A stretch of 64,000 nucleotides of DNA from NCBI RefSeq assembly GCF_035999125.1, contig NZ_DASYGX010000005.1:46159-110158 (forward strand), in the 5' to 3' direction. The notes beneath the pieces are model-generated. The model did not search any database, was not told where the DNA came from, and saw only the letters and a list, made by a program, of their open reading frames with translations. The position numbers were made by a program, and so were the translations under genes. This stretch comes from Brevundimonas sp. GTDB lineage: Bacteria > Pseudomonadota > Alphaproteobacteria > Caulobacterales > Caulobacteraceae. Positions 31,792 through 32,541 of this stretch are shown here, in pieces (within the stretch, counting starts at the first letter, position 1; every line of letters starts with the position of its first letter).

Positions 31792-31801
31792 TCTGACAGC
31801 A

Positions 31802-31830
31802 TTGACAGCAACGCTAGCAAGACCTAACTT
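31802..31830 (+). promoter_or_regulatory. Sigma70-like promoter candidate for vapBC inside the atp operon
   Basis: TTGACA (31802-31807), a 17-nt spacer, then TAACTT (31825-31830). The vapB ATG at 31837 lies 7 nt after the -10 box and no Shine-Dalgarno is visible. An 8-nt direct repeat tgacagca (31794-31801 and 31803-31810) overlaps the -35 box. Confidence 0.4.
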
Positions 31831-31836
31831 ACGACC

Positions 31837-32139
31837 ATGGGCGTCCTGACGGTTCGCAACATTCCGGATGAAGACCTCGCCGCCTTGCGCGTGCGGGCCG
31901 CCCAGCATGGGCGCAGCATGGAGGCTGAGGTGCGCGAGCTGATCCACCTCGCCATTCCCCGCACGCGTCGGGCCGAGGTTCCGCGACTGGAAGACCTGCC
32001 GCCGGTTCCCCCCGAGGTGCGCGAGCGTGTGGCGCGGGTGCAGGCGATGGTTCGAGAGGCCTTCGGCGGAGAGATGCCGAAGGGTCGCGTGGACGCCTTC
32101 CTCGCCGAACGTCGGGCCGAGGCGGAGCGCGGCGAATGA
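31837..32139 (+). CDS. vapB: Type II antitoxin, ribbon-helix-helix (FitA/VapB-like)
   Basis: 100 aa. MGVLTVRNIPDEDLAALRVRAAQHGRSMEAEVRELI is the Arc/FitA-type RHH N-terminus. 4-nt overlap with the downstream PIN gene. Confidence 0.8.
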   Translation: MGVLTVRNIPDEDLAALRVRAAQHGRSMEAEVRELIHLAIPRTRRAEVPRLEDLPPVPPEVRERVARVQAMVREAFGGEMPKGRVDAFLAERRAEAERGE

Positions 32140-32507
32140 ACGTCTTCGACACCTCGGCCCTCCTGGCGATCGTCTACGACGAGCCCGGCCGCCCCAATGC
32201 GGAAGCGCGCCTAGCCGGGGCCCTCGTCTCGACCGTCAACGCGGCTGAAGTGATGGGTGACTACGTCGCAAGCGGGCGCGGCGACCTCGCCGCCGCGCGT
32301 CGCATCATCGACGGTCTAGGCATCGAACTGGCCGCGCCGGACTATGATCAGGCCGCCCGCGCCGCCGAATTGAAACGCCCCAAGCTCTCGCTGGGCGATC
32401 GCTTTTGTCTCGCCTTGGGCGAGGCGCGCGGGGACCGGATCGTGACGGCCGACCAAGCATGGGCGGCACTGAACAACATCCGCGTCCCCCTCGAATTCAT
32501 CCGTTGA
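32136..32507 (+). CDS. vapC: Type II toxin VapC (PIN-domain ribonuclease)
   Basis: 123 aa. [12 protein letters not shown] (first acidic D), NAAEV (E), [12 protein letters not shown] (D) and IVTADQAW (D) give the PIN acidic quartet with the expected spacing. Confidence 0.88.
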
Positions 32508-32541
32508 CCCCTTATATCCCAGACGACCCCGAAAGCACCTC

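Follow-up and report, generated by a model that had tools for sequence, protein, structure and literature searches.

A VapBC toxin-antitoxin cassette recurring at one junction of the F1 ATP synthase operon of Caulobacteraceae

The F1 ATP synthase genes atpHAGDC form a highly conserved and essential operon. In the Brevundimonas sp. DNA analyzed here (contig NZ_DASYGX010000005.1; the whole stretch, 64,000 nucleotides long, is referred to as the window), that operon is interrupted between atpG and atpD by a toxin-antitoxin (TA) pair, vapBC. The VapBC lineage to which the pair belongs has this same atpG-atpD junction of the Caulobacteraceae F1 operon as its only observed home. We consider it reasonably probable (about 0.6) that the pair is a selfish, locus-faithful addiction cassette that has its own autoregulated leaderless promoter, lets transcription of the operon pass, and relies for its movement on homologous recombination in the atp genes on either side. 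The cassette would be mainly selfish and is unlikely to be a dedicated regulator of ATP synthase.

The block that separates atpG from atpD is 750 bp long, every gene is on the + strand, and its overall G+C content (0.67-0.72) is not anomalous. The left conserved flank, atpG, encodes the F1 γ subunit (30913-31791; Pfam ATP-synt, E 2e-91) and ends with a TGA stop codon at 31789-31791. It is followed by the left end of the cassette (31792-31836), read from its sequence as the vapB promoter together with a putative operator, then by vapB (31837-32139), encoding a 100-aa antitoxin, and by vapC (32136-32507), encoding a 123-aa PIN protein toxin; the two genes overlap by 4 bp (ATGA). A spacer at 32508-32541 leads to atpD (32542-34080), the gene for the F1 β subunit and the right conserved flank, which is assigned by Pfam ATP-synt_ab plus the N- and C-terminal domains; Pfam likewise confirms atpA. 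The original prediction, which was made from the letters alone, had placed the end of atpG, both open reading frames (ORFs), and the start of atpD correctly to the base. An identical locus is also present in a JGI contig and in an SRA assembly, one of each.

The pair is an ordinary member of the FitA-like ribbon-helix-helix (RHH)/PIN class of VapBC systems and has the defining sequence and fold features of that class. Residues 4-37 of VapB match FitA-like_RHH (Pfam PF22513, E 2.2e-16, 60 bits; cut-off 27). An alignment of 11 lineages contains 26 invariant VapB columns, located in the RHH domain and in a C-terminal tail whose pattern, G/VD.F.AER...AER, is invariant in all 11 and which would bind the toxin. 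Residues 3-111 of VapC match PIN (Pfam PF01850, E 4e-11, 44 bits; cut-off 23.6; 115 of 120 model positions), and the acidic quartet D5, E38, D88, and D106 is invariant at all four positions in alignments of 23 and 29 homologues. Both domains, and the intact quartet, had been named in the original prediction, and the profile searches assigned each of them. The AlphaFold2 model of VapC has a pLDDT of 96.7, and its top 27 Foldseek matches are all VapC or PIN toxins, at TM scores of up to 0.79. Mycobacterium tuberculosis VapC30 (4xgq, TM 0.78) is among the best of these, with further matches to the VapCs of Shigella, the F-plasmid, and Klebsiella, to other M. tuberculosis VapCs, and to Caulobacter crescentus VapBC1. 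A sequence profile of VapC also reaches VapC30 (E 1.2e-6). A single-sequence search against solved structures detected no homologue of the pair, an NCBIfam search gave no match, and neither protein matched any of 5,027 PADLOC defense models at E 0.01 or better.

From these features VapC is predicted to be an RNase toxin with the VapC fold, toxic to the cell and neutralized by VapB. VapC toxins carry out site-specific cleavage of tRNA or of the sarcin-ricin loop of 23S rRNA, and by analogy the VapC of the window is expected to do the same. When compared with L163, which carries the closest homologous module, dN/dS is 0.079 for vapB and 0.076 for vapC; values of around 0.08 in both genes indicate a pair kept by selection rather than a remnant in decay. 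The overlap of the two genes is ATGA or GTGA in all nine lineages read at the sequence level, and the called-gene coordinates of the remaining lineages give the same 4 bp. With GGAG located 8 nt upstream of the vapC start in the window, vapC would be translationally coupled to vapB.

The distribution of the cassette was assessed from the atpG regions of 80 Brevundimonas-like species-representative genomes (82-99% AtpG identity to the window), in which the junctions were measured. In 78 of the 80, only 25-98 bp separate atpG from atpD, and the block is therefore an insertion relative to the norm rather than a feature fixed in the genus, which bears out the proposal of a same-strand insertion into atpHAGDC. 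The nearest relatives have an empty site: both L003 (99% AtpG identity) and L004 (Brevundimonas fluminis, 97%) have a gap of 43 bp. VapBC was found at this junction in L030 alone, and the atpG-atpD junction of L028 holds a different ORF, encoding a 74-aa coiled-coil protein. The original prediction would have been refuted by finding the arrangement in most related genomes as an ordinary feature, which is not the case, and had asked whether the insertion was strain-specific or lineage-wide. It is neither: the cassette is absent from 79 of the 80 species genomes, including the closest relatives, and recurs in 14 Caulobacteraceae lineages. As an aside, L003 (CALRWJ020000007.1) is a metagenome-assembled genome (MAG) labeled Afipia felis despite its 99% AtpG identity to the window, and either the label or the binning of the contig is probably wrong.

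A wider protein search returned 33 VapC clusters at 60-91% identity, and every cluster contig with readable context has the order atpG-vapB-vapC-atpD on one strand. The clusters placed in this way are P0004 (L163), P0012 (L164-170), P0016 (L171), P0032 (L172), P0033 (L173-174), P0009 (L176-177), P0030 (L178-179), and P0018 (L180). The same order is found in L002 (the window being L001), and more diverged modules occupy the same junction in L083, L086, L030, and L182. With the window included, all 14 lineages of readable context have the pair at atpG-atpD on the atp strand, without exception. L163, L030, and L086 belong to Brevundimonas or to its near relatives, and the other carriers are uncultured Caulobacteraceae with AtpG proteins 62-69% identical to that of the window; for L164, for example, the best named matches of AtpG are 72-74% identical and come from Caulobacter sp. 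S45 and Caulobacteraceae MAGs. The AtpD proteins of the cassette-bearing lineages are 84-95% identical over full-length sequences, and nucleotide identity of the flanks within Brevundimonas is around 90%, which should be high enough for recombination between diverged lineages.

Beyond this group, the association with atp genes disappears. The nearest outgroup, P0036 (43% identity), is paired with a MazE-type antitoxin among unrelated neighbors with no atp genes. A metagenome scan with the VapC alignment recovered mostly distant PIN proteins; L083 and L086 were the informative loci, and the other 78 metagenomic loci, with VapCs 30-47% identical, contained no atp gene. The best VapC in the plasmid collection is 42% identical, with VapB matched there over the 45-aa RHH part only, and viral contigs gave only distant matches to the RHH domain. 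A plasmid- or phage-borne stability module was discarded as an explanation because these collections hold no close relatives. The relatives recovered with a VapB profile include a large FitA-like group of 92-93 aa (e.g. P0258, P0281, and P0279), 55-63% identical to the VapB of the window.

Comparison of the modules with their hosts provides evidence for movement. The VapBC alleles form three deeply diverged groups, which are distributed against the host tree. In trees of AtpG and AtpD, the window, L163, L030, and L086 group together and L164 groups with L083, whereas in the VapBC tree L030 and L086 branch deepest (47-50% identity to the others), with L083 next (55-58%). Thus, the window and L164 are 79% identical in AtpG and AtpD and 78% identical in VapBC, whereas for the window and L030 the corresponding values are 93% and 48%. 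The same discordance is seen between L164 and L182, the AtpA, AtpG, and AtpD proteins of which are 98, 97, and 98% identical, whereas VapB and VapC are just 53 and 51% identical. The L164 module is instead closer to that of the distant window host (72-84% identity), and the VapB and VapC of L182 are 75 and 72% identical to those of L083. The DNA of L164 and L182 is 98% identical over the final 120 nt of atpG, 40-80% over the cassette, and 88-98% in atpD, and little of the promoter is kept beyond the TTGACAGC core. This profile is the one expected where alleles are exchanged and the conserved flanks stay in place.

The rates of divergence are also irregular, and in opposite directions. Between L030 and L086 the cassette is 98.1% identical and the atp flanks 95.6% (p 8e-4), whereas between the window and L163 the fourfold-degenerate sites of vapBC are 48% identical, near saturation, against 65% in the non-atp neighbors (p 1e-3). 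Fourfold identity is 65-80% in all eight neighboring genes that have an orthologue in L163, non-atp genes of weak codon bias among them. Codon usage was the feature from which the original prediction had argued for acquisition. T-ending codons make up 13% of vapB and 9% of vapC but 0-3% of the atp genes, and A+T at third positions is around 20% in vapBC and 3-7% in the atp genes. The reported excess therefore holds in relation to the atp genes, but it is weaker in relation to ordinary non-atp neighbors, in which 4-9% of third positions are T. Acquisition itself is supported both by the short gap in relatives and by the codons that are atypical of the atp genes. Taken together, the tree conflict, the L164-L182 pair, the opposite clock deviations, and the atypical codons argue against simple vertical descent and for recombination in the flanks.

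The mode of transfer is suggested partly by what the locus lacks. No inverted repeats, direct repeats, or target duplications bracket the block in the region 31700-32650, and no recombinase is encoded in or beside the cassette at any locus. A transposon, an insertion sequence (IS) element, and an integron cassette were ruled out for want of terminal repeats, duplication, or an adjacent recombinase. With no recombinase, inverted repeats, or target duplication, homologous recombination via the flanks is the most likely route. After DNA uptake, recombination through the conserved atpG and atpD genes would both spread the cassette and replace one allele with another. Dependence on the flanks would keep the cassette faithful to one junction, and its site within an essential operon, combined with post-segregational toxicity, would make it hard to lose.

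The left end of the cassette appears to contain a promoter of its own. The sequence TTGACAGC begins 35-36 nt before the vapB ATG in 12 of 12 aligned lineages and in L182. In the window, the -35 box TTGACA (31802-31807) is followed by a 17-nt spacer and by a -10-like TAACTT (31825-31830), which is preceded by C to give CTAAC and lies 6 nt from the ATG; the distance from a CTA-type -10 box to the vapB ATG is 6-7 nt for most lineages, with L030 and L086 at about 4 nt. The element fits what we take to be the Caulobacter sigma-73 consensus (TTGACGS ... GCTANAWC), and a sigma-70/sigma-73-type promoter of this form (TTGACAGC, 17 nt, CTA-type -10) would drive vapB. In L176, TTGACAGC is still at -36 from the vapB ATG despite an extra ORF that separates atpG and vapB, which indicates that the promoter travels with the cassette. 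All 31 of the nucleotides at 31792-31822 are identical in the window and L030, even though the proteins encoded downstream are just 44-48% identical. Canonical promoter geometry would place the start of transcription on the A of the vapB ATG, and the mRNA would therefore be leaderless. No Shine-Dalgarno sequence precedes vapB in the lineages read closely, and leaderless antitoxin genes are common in other bacteria.

Overlapping the -35 box is a series of direct repeats with a 9-bp period, TGACAGCA at 31794-31801, TGACAGCA again at 31803-31810, and CGCTAGCA at 31812-31819. Two or three such repeats overlap the -35 box in the lineages read, and the motif occurs nowhere else in the 64 kb of the window. 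The units are the obvious candidate for a VapB operator, and VapB or the VapBC complex probably represses the vapB promoter by binding to the two or three TGACAGCA/CGCTAGCA repeats.

Downstream of vapC, the 3' part of the vapC-atpD spacer is similar to the atpG-atpD spacer native to relatives with an empty site and, when aligned to the spacers of L003, L004, L008, and L009, retains CAGAC..GAC..CGAA..GCACC..ATG. A terminator scan of the window found no terminator-like site on the + strand after atpG or vapC, the RNA of the vapC-atpD spacer shows less structure than shuffled sequences do (z +1.96), and an Rfam search of the spacer gave no match. On the results of the scan, Rfam, and folding, the presence of a terminator or RNA element in this spacer was rejected. 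Given no terminator, an unstructured spacer, and no Rfam match, read-through from the atpH promoter is the simplest expectation. RNA polymerase starting there would read through the cassette and probably still supply atpD-atpC, with the internal vapB promoter adding a minor, TA-controlled contribution. The two routes to atpD-atpC set out in the original prediction, read-through and initiation at the TA promoter, are both compatible with the sequence. The further suggestion that β-subunit expression is coupled to the TA module is unlikely as the reason for the presence of the module, given its patchy distribution. In a transcript produced by read-through, the vapB ATG would be internal and without a Shine-Dalgarno sequence, such that TA output may be insulated from strong atp transcription. 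In L172 (4370-4410), a G+C-rich hairpin and then a stretch rich in T (GAGCGCGCGCGCTC GCTTTTAATTT) come after the vapC stop and look like an intrinsic terminator or attenuator before atpD; the window has no counterpart.

VapBC is not the only cargo in these operons. When inserts of at least 150 bp were counted among the species representatives, none was found at atpH-atpA (0 of 68), three at atpA-atpG (of 79), two at atpG-atpD (of 80), and six at atpD-atpC (of 68). In the window itself, an ORF of 181 aa with a signal-peptide-like N terminus, ORF181 (34080-34625, + strand), lies between atpD and atpC, a junction that is normally 0-3 bp wide, with a gap of about zero in 62 of the 68 species representatives. 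The first codon of ORF181 shares bases with the atpD stop (TGATG), a single nucleotide separates its stop from the atpC ATG, 22% of its third positions are A or T, and it has no Pfam or PADLOC match. Homologues that are 41-42% identical occupy the same junction in L013 and L086. Cysteine-containing ORFs of about 200-270 aa are found at atpD-atpC in the non-Brevundimonas Caulobacteraceae L164 (5989-6639), L172 (6166-6966), and L178 (5899-6495) and are 36-56% mutually identical. L182 has a 218-aa ORF there (6151-6807), and the DNA of the L164 and L182 inserts is only around 50% identical, although that of their atp genes is around 90-98% identical. An ORF of 74-75 aa encoding a coiled coil lies directly upstream of atpD in L028 (5920-6144), a Brevundimonas-like MAG, and in L176 (5313-5540), a distant Caulobacteraceae contig. 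The two versions are 73% identical although the hosts belong to different genera, and the protein has weak coiled-coil Pfam matches and a weak PADLOC "CorA-like" match (E 8e-4). An 80-aa ORF with a hydrophobic stretch is located at atpA-atpG in L171 and L176. L176 (2163-7687) has cargo at three atp junctions, all on the operon strand: two small ORFs at atpA-atpG; a 90-aa ORF, VapBC, a 308-aa PhyH-domain gene between vapC and atpD, and the coiled-coil ORF at atpG-atpD; and a 181-aa ORF at atpD-atpC.

Every cargo gene is co-directional with the atp operon. Each of the other cargo families keeps to a single junction, a generality that fits flank recombination and speaks against any specific functional link of VapBC to ATP synthase. 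A broader and more tentative proposal, to which we would give a little less than an even chance, is that the F1 atp operon serves as a "cargo rack," in which ultra-conserved genes act as homology arms and cassettes are passed between species and even genera. Each cassette would be locked to one intergenic junction, and the cargo would comprise at least three VapBC allele groups with one leaderless promoter-operator, the 75-aa coiled-coil gene, the small membrane ORF, and several families of secreted proteins. Were this so, the VapBC lineage would be a TA system specialized to parasitize an essential operon, with site-specific mobility that needs no recombinase.

Two further features of the operon in the window are recorded here. 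The mechanical ORF for atpH extends over 28549-29298 (+ strand; Pfam-confirmed), which is 249 aa from a GTG codon, whereas the start in the public record is at 28744 (184 aa). The OSCP domain covers residues 76-246 of the long form, and the long N terminus is probably not translated. At the other end, atpC (34627-34896, + strand; Pfam ATP-synt_DE_N, E 7e-26), encoding the F1 ε subunit, is the last gene of the operon, and ORF191 (34896-35471, with a possible GTG start at 34893) begins at its stop codon. ORF191 has a signal-peptide-like N terminus, no Pfam match, no homologue among the fetched loci, and 18% A+T at third positions, as in the other cargo genes.

The proposal of a mobile cassette has to be set against several observations that weigh against it. 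The synonymous-site tests rest on around 126 sites and are confounded by the strong codon bias of the atp genes. The flanks of the window are nearest to those of the empty-site genomes L003, L004, and L005 in every segment, and not to those of cassette carriers; imported flanks resembling the atpG and atpD of other carriers were ruled out, as the empty-site relatives are nearest throughout. The lone trace of import is a modest dip in identity, to around 90% with L003 and L004 (which are mutually around 95% identical), that covers 300 nt at the end of atpG and 450 nt at the start of atpD. A resident toxin should oppose the replacement of its allele, and independent filling of empty sites must therefore be assumed. 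Context was read for only 14 lineages, and a VapB profile search gives 1,636 relatives, including the large 92-aa group. The promoter, leaderless start, autoregulation, and read-through are all deduced from sequence, and a generic sigma-70 scan of the vapB promoter did not call it, the -10 box matching at 3 of 6 positions. Finally, the VapBC tree of group A partly tracks the hosts (window with L163; L171 with L178), and part of the distribution could reflect vertical descent with many losses. This last point leads to the most substantial rival, that the cassette is an ancient resident that entered once, in a Caulobacteraceae ancestor, and has since been inherited vertically and lost repeatedly and precisely, its alleles being the product of fast divergence in situ. 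A single origin would account for the same position, orientation, gene overlap, and promoter geometry in 14 lineages. The host relationships recovered in group A (window with L163; L171 with L178 and L172), the closeness of VapBC identity between genera (71-80%) to that of AtpG and AtpD (76-80%), and the native look of the window flanks agree with it. The cost is dozens of clean, independent deletions, each of which re-forms a spacer of 25-98 bp. Nor does it explain why L164 and L182 share 97-98% identity in Atp proteins but 51-53% in VapBC while the modules of L164 and the window share 72-84%, or why the codon usage is unlike that of host genes. No single clock fits a cassette that is less diverged than its flanks between L030 and L086 and more diverged than all of its neighbors between the window and L163. 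We regard this as an unlikely account of the whole, although an ancient origin with many later losses probably has some part in the pattern.

Two functional interpretations seem less likely again. VapB turnover depends on ATP-dependent proteases, and it can be imagined that the module is a domesticated regulator, the autoregulated promoter of which, perhaps with the VapC RNase, tunes atpD-atpC or couples growth arrest to energy status. The co-directional arrangement with no terminator, the conserved internal promoter-like element upstream of atpD, and the strong purifying selection on vapB and vapC are what would be expected of such a role. However, the closest relatives run the operon without the module, the site is filled by interchangeable alleles of 45-55% identity, unrelated cargo (PhyH-domain, coiled-coil, and signal-peptide ORFs) is found between vapC and atpD or elsewhere, the native spacer before atpD is kept, and the insertion is accompanied by no change in AtpD; we consider regulation of this kind improbable. 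Similarly doubtful is an anti-phage role, in which the pair would act in abortive infection from a variable hot spot, its alleles and patchiness being the outcome of an arms race and the atp junctions a small defense or accessory island. Defense genes typically show patchiness, horizontal exchange, and deeply diverged alleles, and several operon junctions do hold variable cargo, but neither protein matches any of the PADLOC models, there are no adjacent phage, integrase, or other defense genes, and the co-located signal-peptide and coiled-coil ORFs have no significant match to a known defense family. We therefore return to the selfish cassette carried by its atp flanks as the preferred explanation.

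Among characterized systems, the closest in kind is FitAB of Neisseria gonorrhoeae and the FitA-like RHH-PIN class, with which the pair shares an N-terminal RHH antitoxin, a four-acid PIN toxin, antitoxin-first order, and overlapping genes. The octamers TGACAGCA, CGCTAGCA, and TGCTATCA (the last from L182) resemble what we take to be the FitA half-site. It differs in its repeats, which all point the same way, one every 9 bp, rather than forming a spaced inverted repeat, and in lying within an essential operon instead of being free-standing. VapC shares its fold with VapC30 (4xgq), the Shigella and F-plasmid VapCs (3tnd and 9h6a), and C. crescentus VapBC1 (5k8j), at TM scores of 0.71-0.79 and sequence identities of just 16-25%; none of these solved toxins is reported within an atp operon, and the antitoxin of C. 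crescentus VapBC1 is presumably of a different DNA-binding class.

In terms of genomic arrangement, there is a parallel in relA-mazEF of E. coli, in which a TA module is co-transcribed with a housekeeping gene. In both cases the TA genes lie downstream of a core gene on the same strand and combine read-through with an autoregulated promoter of their own. However, mazEF ends its transcription unit, whereas the module described here interrupts an operon, such that the essential atpD and atpC depend on passage through it, and its position is conserved across genera while alleles exchange. The atp operon of Rhodopseudomonas blastica reportedly contains, in literature of the 1980s, an unidentified gene between the γ and β genes; this would be a further F1 operon from the Alphaproteobacteria whose atpG-atpD junction holds an unrelated ORF, one not known to have been identified as a TA system. 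In the literature that could be searched, pairing TA or VapC with atp terms gave no described case. What appears to be new is the genomic behavior, namely a VapBC lineage confined to one junction of atpHAGDC, with exchangeable alleles and a conserved promoter of leaderless type. Chromosomal TA systems are usually described as scattered or as associated with islands or mobile elements, whereas here a VapBC lineage appears tied to one junction in a highly conserved essential operon, with near-identical flanks around very different alleles. If this is borne out, the "invariant" atpHAGDC string is permeable in one bacterial family. The system poses the questions of how a toxin gene might be insulated from strong housekeeping transcription by a leaderless antitoxin start, and whether an internal, TA-repressed promoter alters the stoichiometry of the ATP synthase subunits.

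In strategy, although not by homology, the cassette most resembles the inteins and homing-endonuclease genes, which are selfish elements at one site of an essential, conserved locus. In both, conservation of the flanks permits transfer between diverged hosts and hinders clean loss. The cassette differs in being intergenic, with no endonuclease or splicing; its spread would use the homologous recombination of the host and its retention would use TA addiction. If confirmed, it would be a clean natural case of a selfish element that owes its mobility, and also its protection against deletion, to conserved essential flanks, without any recombinase.

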